From a virus (Duplodnaviria; Heunggongvirae; Uroviricota; Caudoviricetes): a stretch of 64,000 nucleotides of DNA. A program made the position numbers and the translations under genes. The notes under the pieces were generated by a model. That model searched no databases. It had not been told where the DNA came from and saw only the letters and a program-made list of their open reading frames with translations. Below, piece by piece: positions 5,328-52,601 of the stretch (its first letter is position 1; each line of letters starts with the position of its first letter). The stretch spans positions 35,384 through 99,383 of IMG/VR virus record IMGVR_UViG_3300028888_000051. The stretch is one strand, 5' to 3'.

Positions 5328-5684
5328 TTAATCTCCAAAAACCATCTTTAAATACACATAAAAATAATTTATATCATCTTTTATTTCAAAGCATAAATAT
5401 TCTTTACGATAATCTTTTTCTAAATATTTTAAATTATATTTTTCACATATTTCTTTTACTATGTTTTTTCTATTTTTACAAATTTTAAAATATATTATTT
5501 TGAAATTTGAATGAATTAAATGTCTATAATATTTTCCATATCCATCACTATATGCTAATATATGTCTTTTTAATACTCGACAATTTAAAGAATAATTAAA
5601 AGAATATCTAACATGACGTTCAATTATCTCTAAGCATTCATCATACTTCTCTAAATATTCTTTAGTTATATCTAAATTATTCAT
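5328..5684 (-). CDS. Small protein, C-terminal-motif family (KRK..FGL subfamily)
   Basis: KNRKNIVKEICEKYNL...DYRKEYLCFEI...INYFYVYLKM. Confidence 0.65.
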   Translation of the reverse strand: MNNLDITKEYLEKYDECLEIIERHVRYSFNYSLNCRVLKRHILAYSDGYGKYYRHLIHSNFKIIYFKICKNRKNIVKEICEKYNLKYLEKDYRKEYLCFEIKDDINYFYVYLKMVFGD

Positions 5685-6006
5685 ATTTTTCCCTATATGA
5701 TAGTTTATATAAAGTAACTATATTAAATACTTCATTTAAATATTCTTCTTTAAAACTTAGTTGTAAATAAGTAATTAGTTCACTATTTGTATATTGAAAA
5801 TCAAAATATTTATCTATATTAAAATATTTCAAATAAAAATTTATTCGATCTATTGGGTTTATTATTAAAAATGATATATACCAATTACTTAAACTAAGTT
5901 TATAAGTAAAAAGTTCATCATTTGAATATGATAATGATGAAACATTACATGTATTGTATATTATCTTATTTGTTAACCAATTTGCTAATTCTATTTCTTT
6001 ACTCAT
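5677..6006 (-). CDS. Small protein, C-terminal-motif family
   Basis: Ends VFNIVTLYKL. Confidence 0.6.
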   Translation of the reverse strand: MSKEIELANWLTNKIIYNTCNVSSLSYSNDELFTYKLSLSNWYISFLIINPIDRINFYLKYFNIDKYFDFQYTNSELITYLQLSFKEEYLNEVFNIVTLYKLSYREKYE

Positions 6007-41144: not shown

Positions 41145-41589
41145 TAGTATACTCCGGATTTTTTAAAATGTAACTTATCATATATAATATATCATCATAC
41201 AATTCTTTTGAAAATTCATATGATGTATAGGCATATAATTTAGATACTAGTTGAAAATAATCATAAATATCTACGCTAAATTCTTTTAAAGGTCCATTAG
41301 ATATATCATTATATGTATGGATCATAAATATATTTTTATCATTATAATATGTTAAATCTATAAAATGATGTCTAGTATTAAATTTGTCAAGAACAGCTAT
41401 AAATATATATAAATGTCCATATGGATACATTAATTCAGTATCTATACCATACGAATACCCGTCTTTTTCTACTCTCAACTTATTGCGTCTATACTTATAC
41501 CAATTATAATTCATATTCTTATCCCCCAAAGTGAGATACGAGCCATAAAATTGTAAAAAATACAATAATCCATCTAAAAGCATATGCAA
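41119..41589 (-). CDS. Hypothetical phage protein
   Basis: Likely start MNYNWY after GGGGGA. Confidence 0.55.
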   Translation of the reverse strand: MHMLLDGLLYFLQFYGSYLTLGDKNMNYNWYKYRRNKLRVEKDGYSYGIDTELMYPYGHLYIFIAVLDKFNTRHHFIDLTYYNDKNIFMIHTYNDISNGPLKEFSVDIYDYFQLVSKLYAYTSYEFSKELYDDILYMISYILKNPEYTIENLISSK

Positions 41590-42472
41590 CAGGAAAGATA
41601 AAGTATTTTATAATTCTATCAAATATCCAATATAAACAATATCCACAAAAAGCAAATATTTTACTTATAATCAGTATATTCAATAAAGTAGTCCAACCTA
41701 GTGTTTCTAAAAAATTATTTTTACTTACAATATATACGAAATACTTTAACCATTTAATTGTATAATTAGTATTTTTCATAGCATTAGTTGGTTTTAATTT
41801 TTTTATTAATTTGTTACGTAAAATTAAAGGTAACGTTAGCAAATATACTAGCATTGTTCCAAAAAGTGATAAAATATTTCTATTCCAAATACTTTTTATA
41901 CAAGATTCGAATTTGTAATTCTGAAATTCTTCTAAAATTTTAAATATAGGTTCAGAATCAACATTTTTATAATATTGATTATCTTCATACCAATCAAAAG
42001 GAAAATCTTCATTATTAACTATTTCATCATCATATTTTTCTTCTTCTTTTTTAGCATTAACAAAGGCTGTTGTAAATTGACTAATTATACTATCAGTGAT
42101 ATTTAATTGGTTGAGTATAATATCAGTTAATTCATCTTTATTTAAATTTTTGTTTTTTAATTTATTATAGATATCATTTATTTGTACTGATATGTCATCA
42201 TCTATTGTTTCTGAATATTTAGCTGTCTTAGTTAAATTATCATAAACTAAACTAGATTTTATACCATGAGCCAAATCATATTCTTTTCTTTTAATTGGAT
42301 CAGATAATGTTTGATAAGCATTAGTAATTTCTTTAAATAAATTACCTGTTTTTGGATTTATATCTGGATGATATGTTTTAGCTAAAAAATAATAAGCACG
42401 TTTCAAATCCTCTTTTGATACGTCATAAGAAACTTCTAATATAGCATAGTAATCTTTAGCTTTTTTGACCAT
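41519..42472 (-). CDS. DnaJ (J-domain) protein with C-terminal hydrophobic helices
   Basis: DYYAILEV...LKRAY..LAK.YHPD.N...FKEITNAYQTLSDP..R.EYD. Confidence 0.85.
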   Translation of the reverse strand: MVKKAKDYYAILEVSYDVSKEDLKRAYYFLAKTYHPDINPKTGNLFKEITNAYQTLSDPIKRKEYDLAHGIKSSLVYDNLTKTAKYSETIDDDISVQINDIYNKLKNKNLNKDELTDIILNQLNITDSIISQFTTAFVNAKKEEEKYDDEIVNNEDFPFDWYEDNQYYKNVDSEPIFKILEEFQNYKFESCIKSIWNRNILSLFGTMLVYLLTLPLILRNKLIKKLKPTNAMKNTNYTIKWLKYFVYIVSKNNFLETLGWTTLLNILIISKIFAFCGYCLYWIFDRIIKYFIFPVAYAFRWIIVFFTILWLVSHFGG

Positions 42473-42548
42473 TTTTCTAATCCTTTCTTTAATTTACTAT
42501 ATATAATATATAATAAAATAGGAAAAAAGTAAAGCCGTTTAAAACGAT

Positions 42549-42638
42549 TGGGGAAAGGCCAGGAATCTCACCTGGGCAGTCAAAATATTGACAACATAAA
42601 TAAATTATGCTACTTTTGTTTATCTCAGTCACCTTTCC
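42549..42638 (-). ncRNA. Non-canonical tRNA-like RNA (long variable arm; loop ATTTATT)
   Basis: Acceptor GGAAAGG/CCTTTCC then CCA, T-arm CCAGG-TGAGATT-CCTGG, variable stem GTCAA/TTGAC. Confidence 0.55.
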
Positions 42639-42647
42639 ATAAAATAT

Positions 42648-42851
42648 TTATTTTTTTGATTTTTTTCTAATATAACTATCTATTGTAGAAGAAATTATAA
42701 AAATCCCAAAAATGATATCTATTGTTAGTAATGCATACATAATCCAGCCTGAAAAATTTAAAAAATCATATATACCTAAACCAACAAATATTAAAAAATA
42801 AAGTATTAATGTCAACACTAACATGATATTTTCCTTTCTAATTTTATACAA
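42648..42851 (-). CDS. Small two-TM membrane protein
   Basis: Two hydrophobic segments and a basic tail. Confidence 0.6.
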   Translation of the reverse strand: MYKIRKENIMLVLTLILYFLIFVGLGIYDFLNFSGWIMYALLTIDIIFGIFIISSTIDSYIRKKSKK

Positions 42852-42896
42852 TTTATAATATTATATAGCATATAATTTAAAAAGTAAAGTCATAAA

Positions 42897-42926
42897 ATAA
42901 AAAAGCTGGATTTTACGTATCCAGCT
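42897..42926 (-). terminator. Intrinsic terminator downstream of the tRNA region
   Basis: AGCTGGAT-ACGTAAA-ATCCAGCT-TTTTT on the minus strand. Confidence 0.75.
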
Positions 42927-43163
42927 AAAGTTTGTCTAACAACGAAGAGTTAAATAAATTTTTTATCGTTATATATATTTCGCATGCTATACTTTATATA
43001 TAACAATACCGATTCTCTTATACCGAACAGTTTTTTAGTGTAGCATAAAGCAATAAACTGTAAAACTAATTATTTTATTAAATAGCAAAAATAATCAAAA
43101 TGCTAATGGAATTTACCATCATAGTCGTTACTTTTGACAATGGGATACGACACCCCCAAAAAC

Positions 43164-43239
43164 TGGTGGAGAATAGGAGACTTGAACTCCTTACCTACTG
43201 AATGCAAATCAGTCGCTCTCCCAGATGAGCTAATTCCCC
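43164..43239 (-). tRNA. tRNA-Ala(TGC)
   Basis: Cloverleaf, G3:U70 pair, loop TT-TGC-AT, encoded CCA. Confidence 0.93.
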
Positions 43240-43726
43240 TCCAAATTAAAAATAACCAATTCTTTAAGCGTGTTAGGTATGCCGTCTTGATACTGACTAC
43301 TCCTTACATCATCATTCTTAGTTGTATGATGACAGCCTAATAATCTCATAATTGACATTTTGCACATAGAGGCATCTTGGTATTCCTTTTGCCAATACTG
43401 GCAACTTTATAATCTAGCTGAGAGACTCCTGACTACTCTCAAGTTATTAATAAGCGTATTATTCAGTCACTTCCGCGTAAATTAGCTATTTTTACGTTAT
43501 ATAGGAAGGTAGGATTGATTACCTACAAACGGATACAGATGTCAGTAATATTCAACTACGATTTGTCCGTTTCTTACGTCACTACAGGTTGGCCGACCTG
43601 CGCTATTTTAACCTTATACTTCTTATTACATCCAACCACAAATAAATCTTTTCAGAATTTATTTATGTACTCTTATTAGCCATCAACTAATTATTCGAGT
43701 AAAGCCTGATAATAATTAAAATAGAT

Positions 43727-43802
43727 TGGTAGCGGGGGTGGGAATTGCACACCACGACCTTCAGGTTATGAGCCTGACAAGCTACTACTGCTCTACCCCG
43801 CA
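43727..43802 (-). tRNA. tRNA-fMet(CAT), initiator-like
   Basis: TGCGGGG acceptor with a 1:72 mismatch, TCAGG-CTCATAA-CCTGA, CCA. Confidence 0.85.
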
Positions 43803-43884
43803 ACAAATAAGTAATTGTTTAGAACTATTTTATTTTTATTTAATTATAATATAATGGTAAAAATTTATTTGTAAAACCTTTTTA

Positions 43885-43960
43885 TGGGGTGATCGATGGG
43901 ACTTGAACCCATATCCTCCAGAACCACAATCTAGCGCTTTACCAATTAAGCTACGAACAC
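43885..43960 (-). tRNA. tRNA-His(GTG)
   Basis: Loop TT-GTG-GT, C73, CCA. Confidence 0.92.
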
Positions 43961-44004
43961 AAGAATAGACCAGATATACTGATATATACTTCTATTCGTA
44001 AAAT

Positions 44005-44078
44005 TGGCAAGGGTTGACTGAATCGAACAATCATCTTTACTTTTGGAGAGTAAGGTTTTACCATTAAACTAAACCCCT
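44005..44078 (-). tRNA. tRNA-Trp(CCA)
   Basis: TTACT-CTCCAAA-AGTAA, G73, CCA. Confidence 0.92.
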
Positions 44079-44083
44079 ATTTT

Positions 44084-44158
44084 TGGAGCGATTCATGAGA
44101 ATTGAACTCATATCTTTAGTTTGGAAGACTAACATAATAACCATTATACGAGAATCGC
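44084..44158 (-). tRNA. tRNA-Gly(TCC)
   Basis: GCG acceptor, loop CT-TCC-AA, U73, CCA. Confidence 0.93.
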
Positions 44159-44160
44159 AT

Positions 44161-44234
44161 TGGAGAACCGTAAGGGAGTCTAACCCCTCTAATTCGGGTT
44201 GCAGCCGAATGCATAAACGCTCTGCCAACGGTCC
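44161..44234 (-). tRNA. tRNA-Cys(GCA)
   Basis: TTCGG-CTGCAAC-CCGAA, U73, CCA. Confidence 0.9.
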
Positions 44235-44236
44235 AT

Positions 44237-44312
44237 TGGTGGCAACAACTTGACTTGAACAAGTAACTACATCCTTATGAGAGATGCTTTCTACCAATTG
44301 AAATATGTTGCC
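44237..44312 (-). tRNA. tRNA-Met(CAT), elongator-like
   Basis: GGC acceptor, loop CT-CAT-AA, A73; Ile2 not excluded. Confidence 0.8.
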
Positions 44313-44313
44313 A

Positions 44314-44389
44314 TGGTGTGTGCAGTAGGGCTCGAACCTACGACTCACGGCTTAAAAGGCCGTTACTCTACCAACTGAGTTATACACAC
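44314..44389 (-). tRNA. tRNA-Lys(TTT)
   Basis: ACGGC-CTTTTAA-GCCGT, CCA. Confidence 0.93.
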
Positions 44390-44391
44390 AT

Positions 44392-44467
44392 TGGTGGATC
44401 CTCAGAGAATCGAACTCCATCCTTCTGTTCTTCAGACAGACGTACGCACCAGCTATACCAAAGATCC
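44392..44467 (-). tRNA. tRNA-Phe(GAA)
   Basis: TCTGT-CTGAAGA-ACAGA, CCA. Confidence 0.92.
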
Positions 44468-44481
44468 AAATTTATAATAAT

Positions 44482-44514
44482 AAAAAAACCTCTGAACTTT
44501 TTATTTTCAGAGGT
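44482..44514 (-). terminator. Attenuator terminator upstream of the Phe-Lys-Met-Cys-Gly-Trp-His tRNA array
   Basis: ACCTCTGAA-AATAAAAAG-TTCAGAGGT-TTTTTT; the 5' arm can alternatively pair with GGAGGTA in the leader ORF. Confidence 0.85.
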
Positions 44515-44552
44515 ATGCCTTTAATCTTAATTTTATTTATTAATAAGGTTAA

Positions 44553-44627
44553 TTAAACATTACCTCCGCTAGTTTTACCGGCGAAGCCAAACATATGCCA
44601 ACATTTTTTAACCATATTAATCATCAT
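44553..44627 (-). CDS. Putative attenuator leader peptide 1: MMINMVKKCWHMFGFAGKTSGGNV
   Basis: ATG 4 nt after GTTCTATA; core KKCWHMFGF covers all 7 amino acids of the downstream tRNAs. Confidence 0.8.
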   Translation of the reverse strand: MMINMVKKCWHMFGFAGKTSGGNV

Positions 44628-44812
44628 ATTATATAGAACCTTTCTTTATTTTATATTTTATATATAATTTAAATTTTTTTATTTGTAAAACTGTTTTAAA
44701 TAAGAAATAATATTAAATTGAAAAACTTTACGTATTTTTCTTGAGTACTTCCCAACAACGGTTAACACTTAAAGGAGTTAAAGTCAGCATTATATTGGAA
44801 GTAATTGTATTA

Positions 44813-45106
44813 TTAATAACACAAATCAGAATTTGTACAAGAATTATATGGCTTACGACTATATGATACTTCTTCATATGTCTTAGGCTCATATACTGTT
44901 GTGTATGTAATATCTTTATAAATTACTTCTACAGGTTTTGAAACTGTATAAGATGTAGAACAAGTATTACATTCATTATAATAAGATACATTATGTGTTA
45001 CAACTGGTTTGGTTTCTTGTACTTTTTGTACAGGCTGAATTTCTTCTGTTTCACAACATGTACAACCACTTAATAACATTAAACTCAATATTAAAAATTT
45101 TTTCAT
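44813..45106 (-). CDS. Putative lipoprotein
   Basis: MKKFLILSLMLLSGC lipobox; GGAGG SD. Confidence 0.75.
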   Translation of the reverse strand: MKKFLILSLMLLSGCTCCETEEIQPVQKVQETKPVVTHNVSYYNECNTCSTSYTVSKPVEVIYKDITYTTVYEPKTYEEVSYSRKPYNSCTNSDLCY

Positions 45107-45166
45107 TTTATTCCCTCCAAAAAGGCATCAATATTTTTAAAACAATTGTTATATAACAAGAACTTT

Positions 45167-45388
45167 TTATTTTGTAAAACCTTTATTATTTTCATAATCT
45201 AAAAAATTATTTATTGAATTATATGTCATATTTATTAATGTACTACTAGATTCTTCATTAAATTTATTTTTACCATCATAAAAATTTAACATATATAGTA
45301 ATTGACAAAAATTCATATTTGGATATTTTTTGACATAGTATTCTAAAGTTTTTAGAATTTCTTCATTGTATTCTAATTTTGATTTCAT
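45167..45388 (-). CDS. Hypothetical protein; paralog of the N-terminus of 52137-52601
   Basis: KKYPNMNFCQLL vs KKYPELRFQQLL; F.EES..T vs FYENS..T. Confidence 0.6.
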   Translation of the reverse strand: MKSKLEYNEEILKTLEYYVKKYPNMNFCQLLYMLNFYDGKNKFNEESSSTLINMTYNSINNFLDYENNKGFTK

Positions 45389-45417
45389 ATTAAAATATTC
45401 CTTTCTTTTATAGTAGA

Positions 45418-45612
45418 TTATTTAAGTACTAACATACAATTTTTAATATTTAAATAATCTACTATATCTTTTTTCCAATTAAACTTTTTAAACTTCTTCT
45501 TTTTGTTTGGTATAATTTTTGTTCTTAACATACCGCTTTGCCACATATTCATCAATTGTAAATTACGAATTTTTGGCTTTTTTAATTTAATAGTTATAAT
45601 TTCTTTTTTCAT
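45418..45612 (-). CDS. Small basic protein
   Basis: AGGAG SD; Lys-rich. Confidence 0.55.
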   Translation of the reverse strand: MKKEIITIKLKKPKIRNLQLMNMWQSGMLRTKIIPNKKKKFKKFNWKKDIVDYLNIKNCMLVLK

Positions 45613-45634
45613 AAATTTTCTCCTAATAAAAAAT

Positions 45635-45727
45635 TGGCGGATACTGTAGGGCTCGAACCTACGCGAGATGTTACCATCCCCTAACGGTTTAGCAAACCGT
45701 CCTCTTCACCAACTTGAGTAAGTATCC
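45635..45727 (-). tRNA. tRNA-Ser(GCT)
   Basis: ACGGT-TTGCTAA-ACCGT, long variable arm, G73, CCA. Confidence 0.92.
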
Positions 45728-45757
45728 AAAAAAGGAGGAAATTAATCCTCCATAAAA

Positions 45758-46063
45758 TTATTTTTTCTTTTTAAATTTAGATTTAATCCAATTATATAAA
45801 CAAACTAAACTTTTCCAAATCATTTTTAATGTCGACGTAATAAAATCAATTAAAAAAGATTTGATAATTTTATATAAGCCACTAAAAATTGCTTTTAACC
45901 AAGCCCACAAAGCTTTTAAAAAAGACACAATAGGTTCTTTAATTAAATGCCAAGAAGTTGAAAATAAACTTCTTATTGCTTTCCAAGCTTCAGTAGAAAA
46001 AGATTTTAAACTTTTCCACCACTCTTTTATAATTTCTTTAAATGTCATTTGAGTTATCTCCAT
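45758..46063 (-). CDS. Amphipathic Trp/Lys-rich helical repeat protein
   Basis: W..(L/I)K.. repeats with about 11-residue periodicity. Confidence 0.55.
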   Translation of the reverse strand: MEITQMTFKEIIKEWWKSLKSFSTEAWKAIRSLFSTSWHLIKEPIVSFLKALWAWLKAIFSGLYKIIKSFLIDFITSTLKMIWKSLVCLYNWIKSKFKKKK

Positions 46064-46074
46064 AAATTACATAT

Positions 46075-46177
46075 TGGTGGGAAGTTGTGGAATCGAACCA
46101 TCCGTCTCTTTAACTAGTACTTACGAGGACAAGGGTACTAGTCCTTGTCATAGTCTCCATAGCTATATAAGCTTCCC
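46075..46177 (-). ncRNA. tRNA-like RNA with a pseudoknot in place of the anticodon arm
   Basis: GGGAAG/CTTCCC-A-CCA acceptor, TGG-TTCGATT-CCA T-arm; interlocked GACAAGG/CCTTGTC and ACTAGTAC/GTACTAGT stems. Confidence 0.6.
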
Positions 46178-46439
46178 TTAAATGATTGATTATTACTTTA
46201 TTTGTCGTGAAAGCGTTAGGCAAGGTTAGGTCAACAAAGTCTTTCGGTTATCACAGCTTCCCTAAGAAAATTCCTATTAGCCTTTTCGATGGTTGCCTCT
46301 ATCATCTGTGTATTAGATTTACATAATCAATCTTCTGCACGACCAGAATAATTTTACTCCCATTATTAAAATACTGGTGGTTAATTCCACGAACAGAGAA
46401 TTGTGCTGTGTTAAACCTGAAGCCTCTGGAGTTCAATAT

Positions 46440-46667
46440 TTATTTTTGTAAATAATTTATAATATCTTTAACAGTTATAAATTTTTCCATTGCTGCATCT
46501 GGAATATCTTTTCCAAAGTTTTCTTCTAATAAAACAGTAATTTCTACTAAATCGAGACTATCCATATATAAATCATCTGATAATTTTGAATTTTCAGTTA
46601 TAGTTTCTTTTGAAATTCCTAAATTTTCAGACAAGATAGACTTAACTTTTTCTAGAGTTTTATCCAT
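46440..46667 (-). CDS. acpP: Acyl carrier protein
   Basis: DDLYMDSLDLVEI...LEE.FG..IPD...EK..TV.DII.Y with the phosphopantetheine Ser. Confidence 0.9.
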   Translation of the reverse strand: MDKTLEKVKSILSENLGISKETITENSKLSDDLYMDSLDLVEITVLLEENFGKDIPDAAMEKFITVKDIINYLQK

Positions 46668-46676
46668 GTTATACCT

Positions 46677-46871
46677 TTATTTTTTCTTTTTCTTTGTTTC
46701 AATTACAACAGATGTTTCTTTTTTTGGACCTTTTGTATTACATTTTGGAGCTTTACCAATATTTGGATTTAATTTATTATTATAAATAATAGGACTTAAC
46801 TTTAAATATTTTCCCCATTTCTTTTTAAATTGTTGTTCTTCGAAATTCTTCTTTTTTTCTTCATCTGTCAT
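46677..46871 (-). CDS. Small basic hypothetical protein
   Basis: AAGGAGG SD. Confidence 0.6.
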   Translation of the reverse strand: MTDEEKKKNFEEQQFKKKWGKYLKLSPIIYNNKLNPNIGKAPKCNTKGPKKETSVVIETKKKKK

Positions 46872-46886
46872 AATTATCCTCCTTAA

Positions 46887-47261
46887 TTAATGTGAAAAAT
46901 TTTTAAAATGTTGTTTTGTTTGTATAAATATATTATTATCCATACTTTTTGCTTTTTCTTCAGCTAATCTGTCATAATAAGCATATCTATCTTTCGTTAA
47001 TGGATAATAATATAATGCTTTCGAATCTAAAATAACATATTTTTTAATTTCTTGCTCTGATTTATTTGCATATACATCACATAGCATATCAAAAAACTGT
47101 TGCTGTAACTCTTCATCTTGCATAGACTTTTTATAATATCGTGACATTTTATGAGCTTCTAATGCAATATTAGCTTGAGTTTCTATAGCTCTTTGTTTAT
47201 CACCAGACAATTTAATAAATTTAGACTCCTTTTTTAAAAATGAAAAATGTCTATAATTCAT
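46887..47261 (-). CDS. Hypothetical phage protein
   Basis: GTTCTAA motif upstream (47309-47315). Confidence 0.65.
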   Translation of the reverse strand: MNYRHFSFLKKESKFIKLSGDKQRAIETQANIALEAHKMSRYYKKSMQDEELQQQFFDMLCDVYANKSEQEIKKYVILDSKALYYYPLTKDRYAYYDRLAEEKAKSMDNNIFIQTKQHFKNFSH

Positions 47262-47441
47262 TTTAATTGTATCCTATAAAAATTTATAAAATTAATCAAA
47301 CATTATCATTAGAACTAAAATATCATTTGTCCATTTTAAAAATAAGACCTAGGAATTTTTAAAACTCTATGTCATTTCATAGGACAGATCATAACATTAC
47401 TAAGATGTCATAGGATTACTGGGACAATTCTTTATATAAAT

Positions 47442-47517
47442 TGGCTAGGGAAGGTGGGATCGAACCACCAGTCTTCCGAGTCAAAGTCGGAAATTTTACC
47501 AATTAAACTATTCCCTA
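47442..47517 (-). tRNA. tRNA-Gln(TTG)
   Basis: U1:A72, loop CT-TTG-AC, G73, CCA. Confidence 0.92.
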
Positions 47518-47578
47518 AATAAAAAAAAAGAAGGGAACAGGGACCATATGATGTAATCTCAGTGTATTGTTCCCATAA

Positions 47579-47710
47579 TGACAGTTGGAGGAGGAGTCGA
47601 ACCTCACACTATATAACTTTGCAGAGCTATATATTTCCCTCTACTTCCCGTTTTCTTAATCAAACTTTCTTACTGCAATAGTACTTATTTGACATAGTAG
47701 AGCCCCAACC
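47579..47710 (-). ncRNA. tRNA-like RNA with a greatly expanded D-arm
   Basis: GGTTGGG/TCCAACT acceptor, GAGG-TTCGACT-CCTC T-arm, CTCTACT...AGTAGAG closing a long insert, stem with loop CTGCAA; 3' end TCA. Confidence 0.5.
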
Positions 47711-47792
47711 ATAAAAATAGTGACTTTTTGATCATATAGTTTATCACTATTGAACCTAAACGGAGAAGTCACTAAAGAAACTCCCTAAAACT

Positions 47793-47886
47793 TGGCACCT
47801 CGTAAACTGATTCGAACAGCATTCCCGTACTAATTGACTGGAGCTATAGACTATTCAATTAGCGGTCACCATGACTACAACGAGGT
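47793..47886 (-). ncRNA. tRNA-like RNA with an extended anticodon arm
   Basis: ACCTCGT/ACGAGGT-G-CCA, D-arm GTC-ATGGT-GAC, 9-bp stem with a 17-nt loop, T-loop TTCGAAT. Confidence 0.6.
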
Positions 47887-47891
47887 ATAAT

Positions 47892-47970
47892 TGGCGCCCT
47901 CACATGATTTTCACACGTTATCTTGGACCTACATCCTAAGCTATCTATTCGCGACTAGATATAACAGGGC
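47892..47970 (-). ncRNA. Degenerate tRNA-like RNA
   Basis: GCCCT/AGGGC-G-CCA with three internal hairpins in cloverleaf order and non-canonical loops. Confidence 0.45.
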
Positions 47971-48191
47971 ATAAAAATGTCACCAGTTTTTACCCTTTAT
48001 CCACTCACTGTTCGAACATCTTAGTGTTGGAGGATCAAGTTACCATTTTCGACAGCACATAGTTACTTAGGCGATCAATTCTAAGTACTAACAACTGATA
48101 AACTTGTCTAATTATATAAACATCAACTTAATACTTATTCAGCGTACTTTCATATTAAATTGTACTAGTCTATATAATCATGAATTAGAAT

Positions 48192-48277
48192 TGGTGGAAG
48201 GTGATAGAGTCGCACTACCCGAGCCCGAAGGCAACAGATTTACAGTCTGTCCCGCTACTCCTACGGTATAACCTTCC
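48192..48277 (-). tRNA. tRNA-Tyr(GTA)
   Basis: ACAGA-CTGTAAA-TCTGT, variable arm, A73, CCA. Confidence 0.92.
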
Positions 48278-48538
48278 ATAAAAAACAACAGTCTTAACGT
48301 AACTGTTATGATGGGTAAAACGAAATAATATCAAGATATCTACTATATGTGCACCTATTAAATATCTTACTAGTCATTATTTTAACTAACTTTATCTCAA
48401 GTAATAAAGCATACAATAGCATTAACGATTCTATTAAACGGAAAGGGTTTTTTCTCTAAATCCTTTCGAAACGGAAACCGTTTTTACCGAGGTAGGTTTC
48501 ATACCTATTCTACAAAAAATCCTTTAAAATCAAAGACT

Positions 48539-48616
48539 TGGTCGGGGCGAGAGGATTCTAACCTCCGACATCTTGCTCCCAAAGCAAGCGCTCTAAACAG
48601 GCTGAGCTACGCCCCG
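48539..48616 (-). tRNA. tRNA-Pro(TGG)
   Basis: CGG acceptor start, loop TT-TGG-GA, CCA. Confidence 0.93.
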
Positions 48617-48796
48617 AATAAACGATTGAAATTTTACTCATTAAAATCTTTTTGTAAAGAGTTGCCAATGTTTTCAATTTTCGGAAACATTAAAAGGAAG
48701 TCATTATATGCAGTTTTATCATCGGGGTTGTATATAATACTCGTAACAACTCTTTGCAAAAGGACTCTAATCAAATATTCATCCTACTAGAAAAAT

Positions 48797-48872
48797 TGGT
48801 CCACTGGCTTGGACTTGAACCAAGAATAGAGGTTTATAAGACCCCCGTTATAACCACTTTAACTACCTGTGG
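48797..48872 (-). tRNA. tRNA-Ile(TAT)
   Basis: GGGGT-CTTATAA-ACCTC, A73, CCA. Confidence 0.85.
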
Positions 48873-48876
48873 ATAT

Positions 48877-48951
48877 TGGTGATCCCAGCGGTATTCGAAA
48901 CCACATTACCAGAATGAAAATCTGATGTCCTAACCATTAGACGATGGGACC
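48877..48951 (-). tRNA. tRNA-Glu(TTC)
   Basis: TCAGA-TTTTCAT-TCTGG, CCA. Confidence 0.9.
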
Positions 48952-49057
48952 TCGAAAAAGTTTTATATTAGCATACCTACTACACAATCATAATGCTAAT
49001 AAAGGTATATAGTTTATTAGATAGTAGGTTCCATAAACCAAACTTTTTAACCTTAAA

Positions 49058-49136
49058 TGGCGGTGCTTACGGGGCTCGAACCCGTGAATCTTCGCCGTGA
49101 CAGGGCGATGTCCTAGACCAACTGAACGAAAGCACC
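49058..49136 (-). tRNA. tRNA-Asp(GTC)
   Basis: TCGCC-CTGTCAC-GGCGA, G73, CCA. Confidence 0.93.
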
Positions 49137-49141
49137 TTAAT

Positions 49142-49228
49142 TGGTGCGCTAGACCAGAGTCGAACTGGTACGCCATTACTGGCAACAGATTTTAAGTCTG
49201 CAGCGTCTACCTATTCCGCCACAAGCGC
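49142..49228 (-). tRNA. tRNA-Leu(TAA)
   Basis: GCAGA-CTTAAAA-TCTGT, variable arm, A73, CCA. Confidence 0.93.
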
Positions 49229-49236
49229 ATAAATTA

Positions 49237-49599
49237 TTATAAATTATTTCGTATTTTATGGTGTAATTCTCTATGACAATTTGCACATAACATAATACAT
49301 TTATCTAATTCTTTTTTAATTTTTTCAAAAGATTTTGTACTTCCATCTCCTCCAATTCCAAAATCTTTTTCTTCAGGATTTAAATGATGAAATTCTAAAG
49401 CATCTATACAGGTATCATAACCACAAATTTCACATTTGCCACCTTTATATTCAACAGCTTTTTTCTTTAATACTTGTCTTCTTTTTATAACAGCTTCAGA
49501 TCCACATTTTTTACAACGCCATCTTTTTTCTGAATCTCTAAGTACAAAATCTGTTAAACCATGTTTATTGCATATTCTTTTTTCAATTTTAGATACCAT
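49237..49599 (-). CDS. HNH endonuclease inserted in the tRNA array
   Basis: YKGGKCEICGY...ALEFHH..P..KDF...ELDKCIMLCANCHRELH. Confidence 0.85.
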   Translation of the reverse strand: MVSKIEKRICNKHGLTDFVLRDSEKRWRCKKCGSEAVIKRRQVLKKKAVEYKGGKCEICGYDTCIDALEFHHLNPEEKDFGIGGDGSTKSFEKIKKELDKCIMLCANCHRELHHKIRNNL

Positions 49600-49618
49600 A
49601 TAAATAATCCTTTAAATT

Positions 49619-49694
49619 TGGCTGGCCCGGAGGGTCACGATCCCCCGACATCGAAATTAACAGTTTCGCGTTCTTCCAACTGAACTACGGGCCA
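49619..49694 (-). tRNA. tRNA-Asn(GTT)
   Basis: CGAAA-CTGTTAA-TTTCG, G73, CCA. Confidence 0.9.
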
Positions 49695-49700
49695 ATATAA

Positions 49701-49776
49701 TGGTGCCGACGGAGAGACTTGAACTCCCGACCCACTGATTACAAATCAGTAGCTCTACCAACTGAGCTACGTCGGC
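49701..49776 (-). tRNA. tRNA-Thr(TGT)
   Basis: GCC acceptor, loop TT-TGT-AA, CCA. Confidence 0.94.
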
Positions 49777-49832
49777 TTTAAGGCTACCTTCTATTTAACC
49801 TTGAAAGGTAGTAGCAAGGTGTTAAAGATAGT

Positions 49833-49913
49833 TTGGAATGTGGAAGCGAATCCATCTTCCTTTTTGTACCCTAGGCCTGACCGATATACACTTTACAATG
49901 TATAACATCCCAA
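49833..49913 (-). ncRNA. Candidate structured RNA, copy A of a two-copy motif
   Basis: TTGGGATGTTATA...GGTCAGGCC...GGTACAAAA...ACATTCCAA. Confidence 0.45.
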
Positions 49914-50033
49914 GACTTGTAGTTTTCATAACGGTCCATTTAGAGATTCTACTGAGCACTGTCCGTTATGGGAATCTGCTTTGTTAAGGAGCTCTAAATC
50001 TCTTAACTGCAGTTACTACAACCCTCTCAGCAG

Positions 50034-50438
50034 CTAATCCTTAATATTTACTAACTCATAAACATTGATTGGATATTTCCTTTGTTCACAAGCAGCAATT
50101 TTATAAATTCTATGTTTATCTATACCTAAGATATATTTTACAATTCTACCGATATCTTTACCAGCTTCGGCTTCTGGGTTATTAATGTTTCTTTTTAGAT
50201 GGTACTGATATACATAATCTAATGGTGTATAAGACCAATCTCTGAATCTACCACCAACAATATCAGAAGTAGTGAATTGTTTTTTATAAGTCAAAGCTCC
50301 TTGAATCATACCATTTATAAAAGTGGTCAATTCAGCTTGTTGCATATAAGATAGTGATTCAAAAGCACTCGACTTTTGTGTATTAGAATTGATAATCATA
50401 GCTCTTTTCCTTTCATGTATGATTATAATGTTAAACAA
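50034..50438 (-). CDS. Hypothetical phage protein
   Basis: GAAAGGA SD before MIINSN; F...DIVGG...DW..TPL. Confidence 0.65.
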   Translation of the reverse strand: MFNIIIIHERKRAMIINSNTQKSSAFESLSYMQQAELTTFINGMIQGALTYKKQFTTSDIVGGRFRDWSYTPLDYVYQYHLKRNINNPEAEAGKDIGRIVKYILGIDKHRIYKIAACEQRKYPINVYELVNIKD

Positions 50439-50492
50439 AATTTATTAAATGAGAAATAAATTATTTAATGACTCCTATTTCAAAAAGTCAGT

Positions 50493-50569
50493 TGGCAGAC
50501 CGTACAGGACTCAAACCTGTGACACCAAGCTTAGAAGGCTTGTGCTCTTTTCAACTGAGCTAACGGTCT
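50493..50569 (-). tRNA. tRNA-Arg(TCT)
   Basis: CAAGC-CTTCTAA-GCTTG, CCA. Confidence 0.92.
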
Positions 50570-50580
50570 ATAAAAAATGT

Positions 50581-50699
50581 TTTGGGATAGGTAGTGGTAC
50601 ACATCTACGTACGTGACTCTTTTGTGCCTGAAAGACTTACGGTATAAAACCTACTAGTTCGGTCTGACCATCATAGCATTACTGATATGACATCCCAAA
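50581..50699 (-). ncRNA. Candidate structured RNA, copy B of a two-copy motif
   Basis: TTGGGATGTCATA...GGTCAGACC...GGCACAAAA...ATCCCAAA. Confidence 0.45.
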
Positions 50700-50719
50700 A
50701 AAATTTTGTAGCTTTTTAT

Positions 50720-50806
50720 TGGCGGAAGATTGAGGTGTCGATCCCCATACCTCTCGGTACTCACTGTTTTCAAGACAGGATTCTAGGCCGCTAGAATTAA
50801 TCTTCC
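50720..50806 (-). tRNA. tRNA-Ser(TGA) with an extended D-stem
   Basis: Loop CT-TGA-AA, variable arm, G73, CCA; D-stem ATTCTAG-CGGC-CTAGAAT. Confidence 0.85.
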
Positions 50807-50965
50807 ATAAATTGTACAGGATTAACTATCAAAACAATAAGACGCTCTTCTGATTAAGCTAATCCTGTATATTTAATATTATTTCTTATTCACAATGTCT
50901 TTATAACTCTTACGAAAAACAAAATTATATATAGCGTATAATTTTTTATTTGTAAAGCTGTTTAT

Positions 50966-51000
50966 AAAAAACCCGCTAATTTTTTATTTTTAGCGGGTTT
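50966..51000 (-). terminator. Attenuator terminator upstream of the Ser-Arg-Thr-Asn-Leu-Asp-Glu-Ile-Pro-Tyr-Gln tRNA array
   Basis: AAACCCGCTAA-AAATAAAAAA-TTAGCGGGTTT-TTT; the 5' arm can alternatively pair with GGGTTTAGTTTTA at the leader stop. Confidence 0.85.
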
Positions 51001-51031
51001 AATCTTATTTTTATGATAATTTTGAGTAAAA

Positions 51032-51100
51032 CTAAACCCTCAGCCTAACTATTCTAGGTTGATTATATGAATTTAAGTATGTTTCTATCATTATCATCAT
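51032..51100 (-). CDS. Putative attenuator leader peptide 2: MMIMIETYLNSYNQPRIVRLRV
   Basis: ATG 5 nt after GTTCTATA; 13 consecutive codons (IETYLNSYNQPRI) all correspond to downstream tRNAs. Confidence 0.8.
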   Translation of the reverse strand: MMIMIETYLNSYNQPRIVRLRV

Positions 51101-51121
51101 GTTTTTATAGAACTATTTAAT

Positions 51122-52135
51122 TTATCTAAAATCATCAATTATTTCTGATAATGCTTCAATTAAATCTTCTGCTTCTTCTAAACCAATTGATAATCTAAAA
51201 AAATTTGTATTTTCGAAACCTGTAATTACACTAAAATTTACTCCAAAAGTATCTGCTTTTTGAAAAAGCTTAACTTTTTTTATTGTTTCTATCTTTTGTA
51301 TACTTTTTATTGATTCAATAAGTATTATTCCAGTTTCAGTTATCGAATAATAATTTATATTTTCTTGTTTTAAATATTTACAGATTTTTTCAGTTGTATC
51401 TTTTATTTTATTTAATCTTAGTCTTAATGTTTGTAAACCTAAAATAGTAAAATAACAATCAATTGGATGTGGATAAAAACTAAAAATTTTAGATATATCT
51501 TTCATTTTGGAAAATTTATCTTTTGTTTTTTCGTTAGTCATTAATACACCTAACATAGAAGTATTATATCCACAACTACATTTACTTAAACTTTCAATAA
51601 CAAAATCTACATTATACTCAAATGGATTAAATACTAAACCTGTATAACATGAATTATCTACTAATACATATGCTCCAATAGAATGAGCTTTTTCAACTAA
51701 ATTTTTTATATATTCTTTGTTATCTATACAATATGGAATACTACACGATTCTAAACATATTATATCATTTTTAGATATTTTATTTAAATCTGTTAATTCT
51801 ATAGCTTTGCCTTTAAGATTATATGCATCTATCATTTCAGGATATGTATTTTGCAAATAATAAATTTTATTAAACTCATCTGAAATACTAATTAATGTTG
51901 CAGAGGCAACTCCACTATTCAAAACCAAAATTTCTTTTATGTCTCTATTATATATTTTACTTACTATTGTAGCTAAAGCTAACCTGTTGTTAATAGAATC
52001 ACCACGTTTATACTTAAAAAATCTACCATGTTTGATATCTAATTCATCTGAAAAAGAATTGTTTAAATCAATTGTATTTGGTTTAATAATATCTTTATAT
52101 ACATCAGGACTAATTAATAAAGTATCTTTTTTCAT
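51122..52135 (-). CDS. PLP-dependent Cys/Met metabolism enzyme (cystathionine gamma-lyase/synthase family)
   Basis: NSGVAS, LES..IP, VLVDNS...FNPF....DFVIESLSK (PLP Lys), GLQTLRLR, FRLSIGLE..EDLI. Confidence 0.8.
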   Translation of the reverse strand: MKKDTLLISPDVYKDIIKPNTIDLNNSFSDELDIKHGRFFKYKRGDSINNRLALATIVSKIYNRDIKEILVLNSGVASATLISISDEFNKIYYLQNTYPEMIDAYNLKGKAIELTDLNKISKNDIICLESCSIPYCIDNKEYIKNLVEKAHSIGAYVLVDNSCYTGLVFNPFEYNVDFVIESLSKCSCGYNTSMLGVLMTNEKTKDKFSKMKDISKIFSFYPHPIDCYFTILGLQTLRLRLNKIKDTTEKICKYLKQENINYYSITETGIILIESIKSIQKIETIKKVKLFQKADTFGVNFSVITGFENTNFFRLSIGLEEAEDLIEALSEIIDDFR

Positions 52136-52136
52136 G

Positions 52137-52601
52137 TTATTTAACTTTAAAATATTTTTTATATAAATTTTCTAATTGTTTTTTGTTTTTAATTAAAGAT
52201 TTGTTTATAACTGTATCTAATCCACAACATGGACATAAAGCAGTGGTATTATTATCTATCCAATCTTTTATTTTATCATATGTAAATTCAGCATTACAAT
52301 AAATACAAATACATTTTTCAGCAGTTTCTAACTCTATTTTATTATTCATAGAATGTTTATGTATATTTTTTAATTCTGTTTCTTCTTGCTCTTCAATTAC
52401 TTTATTTACTTTTTCAAATGTGGCTTTTGAATTTTCATAAAATCTATCTTCTATTTCTAATTCGTCATGATCATTATAGTTTCTACCAATTATTCCACAT
52501 TTCCATAACAATTGCTGAAAACGTAATTCTGGATATTTTTTTATTTCATGCGTTAGTAATTTTATAATTTTTAAATTTATAGATAAATTAGAGTTTTTCA
52601 T
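52137..52601 (-). CDS. Two-domain hypothetical protein with a C-terminal Cys cluster
   Basis: YPELRFQQLL N-domain; C.C.YC...I.DW.D...TALCPCCG.D.VI. Confidence 0.65.
   Translation of the reverse strand: MKNSNLSINLKIIKLLTHEIKKYPELRFQQLLWKCGIIGRNYNDHDELEIEDRFYENSKATFEKVNKVIEEQEETELKNIHKHSMNNKIELETAEKCICIYCNAEFTYDKIKDWIDNNTTALCPCCGLDTVINKSLIKNKKQLENLYKKYFKVK

Follow-up and report, generated by a model that had tools for sequence, protein, structure and literature searches.

The textbook reference class for control of genes by a translated leader is provided by the attenuators of amino acid operons, which include trpL, hisL, leuL and pheL and the multivalent leaders of ilvGMEDA (Ile/Leu/Val) and thr (Thr/Ile). 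In these enterobacterial systems, a short ORF near the promoter carries many regulatory codons and is combined with three pairings, 1:2 (hairpin), 2:3 (antiterminator) and 3:4 (intrinsic terminator), such that ribosome stalling leads to read-through, and several amino acids can be sensed. In the E. coli pheST attenuator, Phe-tRNA synthetase is placed under a leader peptide (pheM) rich in the cognate codon, and the decoding capacity served by this translation-apparatus gene thereby feeds back on itself. T-box riboswitches also sense the tRNA pool through a terminator/antiterminator switch ahead of translation-related genes, using direct binding of one uncharged tRNA and a conserved T-box sequence, with no ORF. 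Barth et al. (2021) are said to have found that Cys-codon small ORFs of M. tuberculosis respond to cleavage of tRNA-Cys by VapC4, stalling on the upstream ORF reportedly signalling tRNA loss and activating downstream genes. The tRNA clusters of phages such as T4, T5, mycobacteriophage C1 and phiCbK contain interspersed small ORFs and homing endonucleases and have been proposed to supply codons or replace lost host tRNAs; neither PMC10264068 nor PMC3556154 describes an attenuator or leader peptide for them. The phiCbK genome paper reports tRNAs as the only RNA elements, and terminators are annotated immediately before its tRNA blocks.

We analyzed a 64,000-nt stretch of DNA (the window) from the 227-kb record of an uncultured phage, in which two minus-strand tRNA arrays are preceded by the same module (Table 1). 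All elements lay where a preliminary description had placed them, and coordinates and folds bore out its account of ORFs of 22 to 24 codons, a late hairpin and a terminator with an A-rich loop. The module is real and far beyond chance. We consider it likely that each module gates a block of phage tRNA genes by ribosome-mediated, leader-peptide transcription attenuation; the leader ORF is written in codons that these tRNAs read, and the phage probably raises tRNA output only while decoding of the leader codons is slow. This would be a known attenuation logic acting on phage tRNA genes; in agreement with the preliminary description, which knew of no such system, a literature search found no published account of leader-peptide attenuation controlling tRNA genes. 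In contrast to the enterobacterial leaders, with which they share no sequence homology, the phage modules precede tRNAs rather than biosynthetic enzymes, list up to 12 amino acids once or twice each rather than runs of one to three, add a helix between the ORF start and the post-stop spacer (P0), and have terminator loops of 8 to 17 nt that are A-rich in 10 of 11 modules. Whereas pheST couples a single amino acid to a protein-coding target on a bacterial chromosome, multi-tRNA phage blocks are found here; the M. tuberculosis ORFs reportedly sense one tRNA and act on protein-coding targets, and gating of tRNA genes is not described for them.

Table 1. Features of the two modules and their tRNA arrays (window positions)
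Feature	Position	Strand	Details	Basis
tRNA array 1	43164..44467	-	Phe, Lys, Met, Cys, Gly, Trp, His, second CAT-anticodon tRNA (43730-43802), Ala	ARAGORN, Rfam
Intrinsic terminator 1	44482..44517	-	Arms 44514-44506 / 44496-44488, 9-nt A-rich loop, T-tract to 44482	
TAAGATTAAA, module 1	44529-44520	-		
Long-range helix P0, module 1	44539..44621	-	ORF 5' end 44621-44608 x post-stop spacer 44552-44539	MFE folds
Leader ORF 1	44553..44627	-	24 codons + stop; core listing amino acids, codons 7-18 (44609-44574), KKCWHMFGFAGK	
Region 2, module 1 (predicted antiterminator 5' strand)	44560..44569	-	Contains GGAGGT; 4 nt short of stop codon	
Local hairpin 1:2, late in leader 1	44564..44586	-	44586-44581 / 44569-44564	
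SD-like AAAGG adjoining GTTCTATA	44632..44643	-	GTTCTATA at 44639-44632; 4 nt to leader 1 ATG	
Sigma-70-like promoter 5' of leader 1	44661..44689	-	-35 TTTACA 44689-44684, 17-nt spacer, -10 TATATA 44666-44661	Read from sequence
tRNA array 2	45635..50806	-	Ser(tga), Arg, Thr, Asn, Leu, Asp, Glu, Ile(tat), Pro, Tyr, Gln, Ser(gct)	ARAGORN default + relaxed, Rfam, BLAST
Conserved 27-nt element, head of array 2 transcript	50882..50908	-	Kept in L119, L139, L153, L159, L169	
Sigma-70-like promoter 3' of terminator 2	50928..50956	-	-35 50956-50951, -10 50933-50928	Read from sequence
Intrinsic terminator 2	50966..51000	-	Arms 51000-50990 / 50979-50969, 10-nt A-rich loop, T-tract to 50966	
TAAGATTAAA, module 2	51007-50998	-		
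Helix P0, module 2	51013..51100	-	51100-51093 / 51020-51013 + inner segments; encloses entire ORF	
Region 2, module 2 (predicted antiterminator 5' strand)	51030..51046	-	Covers last codons + stop	
Leader ORF 2	51032..51100	-	22 codons + stop; core listing amino acids, codons 5-17 (51088-51050), IETYLNSYNQPRI	
Local hairpin, module 2	51058-51054 / 51048-51044	-		Fold prediction
GTTCTATA, module 2	51106..51113	-	5 nt ahead of leader 2 ATG	

Small ORFs and structured RNA lie between the tRNAs of array 2. ARAGORN at default settings overlooked Ser(tga) and Tyr(gta) of array 2 and the second CAT-anticodon tRNA of array 1; these were recovered by relaxed settings, Rfam or BLAST, by which 48189-48272 matches an annotated phage tRNA-Tyr. 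The reported split of amino acids between the two leaders proved exact. The core of leader 1 draws on no amino acids other than the 8 of array 1 and includes every one of them; a 12-residue run of array residues as in leader 1 was obtained in 0 of 200,000 samples of windows from the phage's own proteome. Leader 2 names 10 of the 11 array 2 amino acid types within a 13-codon run, and its codons are mostly cognate to phage anticodons (ATA, GAA, ACA, TTA, AAT, TCA, CAA and AGA). Leader 2 alone gave a weaker statistic against proteome windows (P = 0.015 to 0.02), because the array 2 tRNA set covers 65% of residues. The listing is imperfect: I, N, V, T and S also occur in leader 1, and leader 2 contains neither Asp nor an AGY Ser codon.

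The module was found 9 further times in five related phages, giving 11 modules in six genomes whose major capsid proteins are 57 to 89% identical where measured. All 11 lie directly upstream of tRNA blocks, and all retain the ATG and in-frame stop of an ORF of 19 to 26 codons. Leader content follows the tRNA set: the core CFWPCFP in G003 precedes Pro, Phe, Cys, Trp and Met tRNAs, KMMFKYIRFYK in G006 precedes Tyr, Ile(gat), Phe, Lys, Met and Arg, HCWCHH in the same phage precedes Cys, His and Trp, and FWHHFP in G009 precedes His, Pro, Phe and Trp. The Ile codon tracks the anticodon (ATA with tat, ATT with gat), and Val(tac) with GTA and Arg with AGA are jointly present in L159 and jointly absent in L119. 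Among 40,320 permutations of leaders over arrays, the true pairing came within the top 3, and for six modules not one of 200,000 proteome windows contained such a run of array residues. Within each phage the leader is enriched for residues of its own array and depleted of those of other arrays, with the exception of G006 leader a (own z 0.6, others 0.3 and -0.1). At the codon level, enrichment was significant for small tRNA sets (P = 1.5e-5 to 0.005). For large type-2 sets, enrichment by itself was weak (P = 0.02 to 0.3), and the G003 leader retains K and G although its array has no tRNA for either. Among the window, L119 and L159, a 14-codon core of leader 1 has undergone 4 synonymous and 0 nonsynonymous changes, while the flanks outside it are replaced freely. 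Arrays without a leader also exist among the relatives (G010, one array of G009 and two of G003).

A scan of the 227-kb genome for short ORFs combined with terminators returned 10 combinations, of which the two modules ranked top by complementarity. In the relatives every match lay upstream of tRNA genes, and all were modules but one weak unconfirmed match in L153; 306 kb of unrelated phage DNA gave 5 matches, with no tRNAs. These data support, at the level of sequence, the specificity of the module for tRNA arrays. Structural criteria alone yield about 1 match per 100 kb in unrelated phage DNA, which would suit a reading in which the elements are ordinary terminators of upstream units, each with a chance short ORF before it. 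Such a reading could also draw on the chance-level frequency of GTTCTATA (25 copies found, about 20 expected) and TAAGATTAAA (7 found, about 7 expected, and loosely conserved among relatives) across the genome, and on the protein gene before leader 2 and the promoter after its terminator. However, the comparative data (recurrence, co-variation with the tRNA set, permutations and proteome windows, and solely synonymous change in the leader 1 core) already contradict it, and terminator 1 sits between leader 1's predicted promoter and the array 1 tRNAs; we regard an absence of regulation as barely credible. Only 14 nt separate terminator 1 from tRNA-Phe, and since no promoter fits in this gap, array 1 would be expressible only via read-through.

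L119 and L159 carry the promoter-like block of leader 1 ahead of their homologous leaders as well, and the GTTCTATA of leader 2 is preserved in the homologous modules of these two phages despite a different upstream gene. As originally described, GTTCTATA is present in both modules, but 20 of its 25 sites lie outside ORFs (P = 1e-12); judging by these positions, it is a general intergenic, promoter-like motif of the phage and not module-specific. The leaderless start without an SD that had been proposed for both ORFs holds for leader 2, in which no SD-like purine run was read ahead of the ATG, but not clearly for leader 1, where SD-like AAGG lies 11 nt from the ATG, within the 5- to 12-nt SD range of this phage's genes.

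The claim that the last leader codons are complementary to the 5' arm of the terminator was upheld in both modules: against random genome windows, region 2 of module 1 pairs with 44517-44508 (8 bp, -12.3 kcal/mol, P = 0.002) and region 2 of module 2 with its terminator arm (-12.2 kcal/mol, P = 0.002). In all 11 modules, pairing is possible between the leader's 3' end and the 5' arm of the terminator, and it was significant in all 9 modules tested (P < 0.0005 to 0.011). Bases flanking the GAGG of region 2 co-vary with the arm across relatives, the base before GAGG changing between G, C and A in step with the base it pairs with (G opposite U or C, C opposite G, A opposite U). The P0 duplex was significant in module 1 (P = 0.009 against shuffled spacer, P = 0.03 against genome windows) and module 2 (P = 0.003), the fold of module 2 as a whole had z = -4.5, and an equivalent helix of ORF start and spacer was significant in 8 of 11 modules. 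In ribosome-masked folding with the A site in the core, upstream pairing of the 5' arm gained 4 to 9 kcal/mol; with the ribosome at the last codons or stop, the gain fell to 0 to 2 in 10 of 11 modules and only to 3 to 5 in G006 leader a. The antiterminator helices are short (6 to 10 bp), and the model separates the states less sharply for module 1.

Recurrence, leader-tRNA co-variation, co-varying alternative pairing, array specificity and the dependence of folding on ribosome position all came out, in silico, in support of the proposal that trp/his-type attenuators sample the tRNAs encoded downstream, and from them we infer leader translation, stalling, read-through and a physiological trigger. 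Transcription would start shortly 5' of the ORF, and a ribosome would load while the RNA 5' end is still free. Fast decoding of all listed codons would bring it to the last codons or stop, covering the GGAGGT-like or stop-proximal region 2, so that the terminator hairpin forms and RNA polymerase halts before the tRNAs. If any listed codon is slow, the matching charged tRNA being scarce, the ribosome would stall within the core and disrupt P0 and hairpin 1:2, and region 2 would pair with the terminator 5' arm, permitting read-through into the tRNA genes. With no ribosome, P0, 1:2 and the terminator should all form, giving termination. The predicted net logic is a multi-input OR gate with negative feedback, in which a tRNA block is on when its own codons limit decoding and off once supply returns.

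A reverse polarity, in which efficient leader translation aids read-through by coupling or polymerase protection while stalling terminates, giving positive feedback, appears very improbable: untranslated tRNA arrays are potential Rho targets whose 5' end a translated leader could shield, but the stop codon lies 45 to 60 nt upstream of the terminator stem, too far for a terminating ribosome to block the hairpin, and region 2 would be under a ribosome at the stop and free with one in the core. We give equally little credence to a translation-independent RNA switch, whether in-frame triplets pair free tRNA anticodons as in a T-box or the structure binds a protein. The strong conserved structure (P0, 1:2 and terminator), the unusually large, A-rich terminator loops and the lack of an SD at leader 2 would be compatible with it. 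However, an Rfam search matched the modules to neither the T-box nor any other family, the frame is conserved in contrast to T-boxes and the listing is readable in that single frame only, amino acid identity is preserved through synonymous change, and a triplet and an anticodon on their own pair too weakly unless a T-box-like scaffold supports them.

For the favored attenuator, candidate triggers are early-infection shortage, phage- or defence-induced loss of host tRNAs, and starvation. The same device might serve counter-defence, the specific trigger put forward in the preliminary description: it would sense cleavage of any listed tRNA by anticodon nucleases (PrrC, PARIS and retron systems being plausible candidates) or other tRNA-targeting defences and induce the phage tRNA genes. 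We consider this purpose possible but rather unlikely: the OR-gate anatomy would react to loss of any one tRNA, and phage tRNAs have been proposed to replace nuclease-cleaved host tRNAs (PMC10264068), but no defence or counter-defence gene was linked to the modules in the window or the relatives, the arrays cover 19 amino acids, far beyond known nuclease targets, and plain supply feedback explains the same features.

The predicted array 2 promoter lies past terminator 2, so attenuator 2 would gate only transcription arriving from upstream, and its control of array 2 is, on this reading of the sequence, partial. L119 and L139a retain this promoter, and L159 has it upstream of the leader instead. 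Within the conserved 27-nt element (50882-50908), a 22-mer is also present in bacterial rRNA spacers after tRNA-Ala.

The proposal that ribosome-mediated attenuators control the two tRNA arrays of the window phage was supported in silico by the anatomy of the modules, by co-variation of leader and array content and by behavior in a folding model, with corrections concerning GTTCTATA, the Shine-Dalgarno (SD) sequence and the promoter of array 2. In the mechanism proposed, a leader-peptide attenuator would gauge the decoding speed of the codons listed in its leader and, by feedback, set how strongly the matching tRNA genes are transcribed. Every element attributed to the two modules was found in place on the minus strand. 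A short ORF of 19 to 26 codons, with start and stop, lies between promoter and terminator in all 11 modules analyzed here, and an intrinsic terminator separates the leader from the regulated genes. The end of terminator 1 is 14 nt upstream of tRNA-Phe, the first gene of array 1, and therefore array 1 would be expressible by read-through only. The terminator loops of the attenuators, in the window and in all relatives, are unusually long (8 to 17 nt), and they are A-rich (AATAAAA-like) in 10 of the 11 modules; loops of the remaining terminators of the window phage are varied, mostly shorter and without an AATAAAA-like word. Such long A-rich loops may delay closing of the hairpin or serve as a binding site for a factor.

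The window spans bases 35384-99383 of one virus record (227,383 bp, 26.6% G+C), and helicases and a major head protein are among the phage proteins encoded. ARAGORN called 18 tRNA genes, and all tRNA genes of the window phage are on the minus strand. Rfam detected a second CAT-anticodon tRNA, missed by default ARAGORN; it may be an Ile tRNA that reads ATA, or else a further tRNA-Met. Relaxed ARAGORN added Ser(tga) and called a weak Rfam match Tyr(gta), and BLAST, which matched the latter to tRNA-Tyr genes annotated in phages, supports the Tyr identity. The tRNAs cover 19 amino acids, Val alone being without one. A UAA-suppressor-like tRNA from relaxed ARAGORN was without Rfam support and was taken as spurious.

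Features of the tRNA region of the window phage (a minus sign denotes the minus strand)
Feature	Position	Strand	Remark
Module 1, GTTCTATA	44639-44632	-	
Module 1, leader ORF	44627-44553	-	24 codons
Module 1, hairpin	44586-44581 / 44569-44564	-	
Module 1, TAAGATTAAA	44529-44520	-	
Module 1, terminator arms	44514-44506 / 44496-44488	-	T-tract to 44482
Module 1, terminator loop	44497-44505		
Module 1, sigma-70-like promoter	44689-44661		
Module 2, GTTCTATA	51113-51106	-	
Module 2, leader ORF	51100-51032	-	22 codons
Module 2, hairpin	51058-51054 / 51048-51044	-	
Module 2, TAAGATTAAA	51007-50998	-	
Module 2, terminator arms	51000-50990 / 50979-50969	-	T-tract to 50966
Module 2, terminator loop	50980-50989		
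Array 2, sigma-70-like promoter	50956-50928		between terminator 2 and tRNAs
Conserved 27-nt element	50882-50908	-	head of array 2 transcript
tRNA genes	43164-50806	-	
Second CAT-anticodon tRNA	43730-43802	-	array 1; Rfam 48.9 bits
tRNA-Tyr(gta)	48197-48275	-	
tRNA-Ser(tga)	50720-50806	-	
UAA-suppressor-like tRNA	~42550-42638		taken as spurious
tRNA-like RNA	46075-46177	-	~100 nt
HNH endonuclease ORF	49237-49599	-	
DnaJ-domain, acyl-carrier-protein-like and PLP-enzyme proteins	41519-42472, 46440-46667, 51122-52135	-	positions given jointly
G+C-richer non-coding stretches	~47560-48190, 49800-50030, 50570-50740		between tRNAs

Relatives were reached via the major head protein in IMG/VR contigs and via a metagenome scan for a conserved element. 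Module-bearing tRNA arrays were found in the related phages G001, G006, G003 and G009, with head-protein identities of 89%, 77%, 71% and 57%, and the metagenome scan added L159, a 246-kb rumen contig, and L169, a near-copy of G001. A search ahead of tRNA arrays in related phages, as the preliminary description had proposed, thus recovered nine more modules of like build, and a tRNA block follows each of them directly. A leader is not present at every tRNA array of the phage group; G010 (head protein 58%) has tRNA arrays, and the module was not found there. Megablast of the region against GenBank phages gave tRNA-sized matches only, the neighboring PLP enzyme as anchor yielded no relatives, and an IMG/VR scan for GTTCTATA plus ATGATGAT returned 109 chance matches and zero modules. 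The DnaJ-domain neighbor was rejected as an anchor for relatives; it retrieved unrelated J-domain phages, which served as negative-control DNA. Scanning the 227-kb genome for a 15- to 35-codon ORF followed by a perfect-stem terminator gave ten combinations, among which the two modules ranked first and second by complementarity of leader and terminator arm. The same scan of the relatives' tRNA regions returned the modules and one weak candidate (L153), likewise upstream of tRNA genes, while 306 kb of unrelated phage DNA gave five matches, three of them distinct, without nearby tRNAs.

The leaders are enriched in the amino acids and codons of the tRNAs encoded downstream, and this correspondence co-varies across phages. 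In leader 1, the 12-codon run KKCWHMFGFAGK uses all eight amino acids of array 1 and no others; none of 200,000 samples of windows from the phage's own proteome matched it. The 13-codon run IETYLNSYNQPRI of leader 2 covers 10 of the 11 amino-acid types of array 2, with codons mostly cognate to the phage anticodon. Taken alone, the enrichment in leader 2 is suggestive only (P about 0.015-0.02 against proteome windows), because the array 2 set covers 65% of residues. The leaders of three relatives are as follows.

Leader content and downstream tRNAs in related phages
Leader	Listing core or residues	Array
G003	core CFWPCFP	Pro, Phe, Cys, Trp, Met
G006 leader a	T, E, N, S, L, A, D, K, P	Met, Leu, Pro, Glu, Ala, Thr, Asn, Asp
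G006 leader b	core KMMFKYIRFYK	Tyr, Ile(gat), Phe, Lys, Met, Arg
G006 leader c	core HCWCHH	Cys, His, Trp
G009	core FWHHFP	His, Pro, Phe, Trp

In L159, V (GTA) and R (AGA) are additions to the second leader, and Val(tac) and Arg(tct) are present in the array behind it; G001 has no Arg tRNA and no R in its leader. The Ile codon tracks the anticodon, ATA occurring with tat and ATT with gat. The true leader-to-array pairing was in the best 3 of 40,320 permutations based on whole-leader composition. Within every phage, each leader was more enriched for its own array than for the other arrays, and the others were depleted except in G006 leader a. Own-array codon enrichment for small sets under strict wobble rules gave P values of 1.5e-5 to 0.005. 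Leader content thus co-varied with array content in the test that the preliminary description had proposed. Among the copies of leader 1 in the window, L119 and L159, the 14-codon core carries four synonymous and no non-synonymous changes and the flanking codons are freely replaced. Such synonymous-only change argues that the frame is read, and together with conservation of the frame it suggests that the leaders are translated. We also considered whether the peptides themselves might be functional micro-proteins; this was rejected because the leader sequence follows the tRNA set and is without conservation.

In all nine modules tested, the 3' end of the leader (last codons or stop-proximal segment) is complementary to the 5' arm of the terminator, with duplex energies of -11.9 to -16.9 kcal/mol and P values of <0.0005 to 0.011 against random genome windows. 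We relied on these per-module duplex tests because a MAFFT alignment of the modules placed the terminator arms out of register. In modules like module 1 (type 1), region 2, the 5' strand of the antiterminator near the leader end, is a GGAGGT-like word, which explains the recurrent G-G or R-G near the leader C terminus. The base 5' of GAGG is G, C or A depending on the module, and the arm base opposite it changes accordingly (U or C opposite G, G opposite C, U opposite A); the next base outward also co-varies (C:G or U:A). In modules like module 2 (type 2), the terminator stems are wholly different in sequence and region 2 has changed along with them. Folding predicts that the local hairpin hides region 2 in the free RNA. 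We also observed a helix absent from the preliminary description, P0, in which the first 10-20 nt of the ORF, including the start codon, pair with the spacer just 3' of the stop. This helix was significant in 8 of 11 modules, with sequences that differ in each, and would close off the leader as soon as transcription has passed the spacer.

The effect of ribosome position was modeled by masking a 27-nt footprint at each A-site codon and computing the energy gained when the terminator 5' arm pairs upstream. With the masked ribosome in the N-terminal part or the listing core, that is, the codons matching the downstream tRNAs, the gain was 4-9 kcal/mol or more. In 10 of 11 modules, moving the ribosome to the last 4-9 codons or to the stop cut the gain to 0-2 kcal/mol; in G006 leader a it dropped only to 3-5 kcal/mol. 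Module 1 of the window discriminated least sharply. In the model, the listing core thus ends at about the point where a stalled ribosome could no longer antiterminate, as a trp-type attenuator requires, and the 5' arm and the ribosome-covered segment would form, in silico, a mutually exclusive antiterminator. We infer stalling and read-through, as we do the natural trigger of the attenuators; anticodon nucleases, suggested earlier for that role, are possibly one trigger among several.

The start signals were less uniform than first described. GTTCTATA occurs 25 times genome-wide, about the number expected by chance, and 20 of these copies lie outside ORFs (P=1e-12); the motif is not confined to the modules. 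Fourteen copies are located ≤150 nt upstream of a co-directional gene, and the motif also precedes genes in relatives; we read it as a putative promoter-type motif of this phage group. It lies 4-5 nt ahead of the ATG in both window modules, and most modules of the relatives carry the six-base core GTTCTA 6-7 nt ahead of the ATG. The leaders had been described as lacking an SD and effectively leaderless. The lack of an SD held for module 2, but not clearly for module 1, which has an upstream sigma-70-like promoter and an SD-like AAGG 11 nt 5' of the ATG; SD-like words precede 70% of the genes of the window phage, 5-12 nt from the ATG. Start-site geometry is ambiguous in both window modules. In G009, the position of a canonical TTGACT-17-TATAGT promoter would make the A of the ATG the +1 nucleotide, so the leader mRNA there would be leaderless. 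A sigma-70-like promoter also follows terminator 2, an arrangement shared by G001 and G006, and L159 has the corresponding promoter upstream of the leader instead. Given this position, transcription of array 2 in the window phage probably has a basal, unattenuated component.

The reason why phages carry tRNAs has been disputed for decades, and to our knowledge the regulation of phage tRNA genes has hardly been addressed so far. Classical leader-peptide attenuators regulate amino-acid biosynthetic enzymes or synthetases. The genes downstream of the phage modules are tRNAs, which places the modules outside every classical attenuator family. Their logic is common to the multivalent attenuators of amino-acid operons and pheST; however, they differ from these in their tRNA-gene targets, in listing one codon per tRNA and in the start-sequestering helix. 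T-box riboswitches have a Stem I with a specifier loop and a conserved T-box sequence, and no ORF. The modules, in contrast, have a conserved ORF, and no T-box match was found in Rfam at E≤1 (42000-52500) or, in the relatives, at E≤0.1; the Rfam search of the region and relatives returned no other cis-regulatory family. A full-text literature search turned up no account of tRNA genes controlled by a leader peptide, in line with the earlier impression that none had been reported, and neither the eLife paper on phage tRNAs nor the phiCbK genome paper mentions it (PMC10264068, PMC3556154).

In the cultured Caulobacter phage phiCbK (JX100813, 47000-53000; L182), terminators are annotated immediately before three tRNA blocks. 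Ahead of the Pro, Lys, Leu, Ser block, gp083 (45 codons) is rich in S, L, P and K, and a short frame with the core QFVRQIQVVRNI precedes the Phe, Val, Ile, Gln block; the leader match at the third block (Glu, Asp) was not convincing. As this partly checked recurrence is in a cultured phage on tractable Caulobacter, the idea is testable now. If it is true, phages would measure decoding capacity directly and tune tRNA supply by feedback, classical attenuation would reach from amino-acid metabolism to the tRNA pool itself, and the leaders would be natural multi-input sensors that cover as many as 12 amino acids with some 20 codons. The modules would also give a handle on the rival hypotheses for phage tRNAs, namely codon compensation, replacement of degraded host tRNAs and counter-defense, and the inducer of read-through would reveal their purpose.

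A conserved 27-nt element lies at the head of the array 2 transcript, just past the terminator or promoter, and is also present in the compared stretches L119, L139, L153, L159 and L169. A 22-mer of it recurs in the spacers of bacterial rRNA operons, some 50 nt beyond tRNA-Ala; the sources are contigs from gut metagenomes and one contig of a Segatella copri MAG. The element may be an antitermination or processing signal of the rRNA type, and it may hint at the host. A bolder proposal, which we regard as speculative and rather improbable as a whole, is that the modules represent a class of phage decoding-capacity sensors that is widespread and so far undescribed. Every tRNA block would then be independently inducible by loss of any cognate tRNA, host tRNA depletion, including anticodon nuclease attack, would be detected and repaired block by block, and the 27-nt rRNA-spacer-like element would make the read-through polymerase processive. 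Separately, a 52-kb contig (L179) carrying a near-copy of the G006 module and array was binned into a rumen Succinivibrionaceae MAG; the binning may weakly hint at the host, or the phage contig may have been mis-binned.

Several further features were observed among the tRNA genes. The tRNA-like RNA, called by neither ARAGORN nor Rfam, has a 7-bp acceptor stem, a T arm and an encoded CCA end, and a long insert replaces its D and anticodon arms; it is kept in L119 at ~5650-5755. Other G+C-richer non-coding stretches also lie among the tRNAs. Three proteins are encoded in the region as well: a DnaJ-domain protein whose C-terminal half is hydrophobic, a protein resembling acyl carrier proteins, and a PLP enzyme of Cys/Met metabolism that is missing from the closest relative. 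The HNH endonuclease ORF is flanked by tRNA-Asn and tRNA-Leu. In G003 (L121, 4250-5045), a group I intron (Rfam 65 bits) splits tRNA-Leu, and its HNH ORF is preceded by the GTTCTATA motif.
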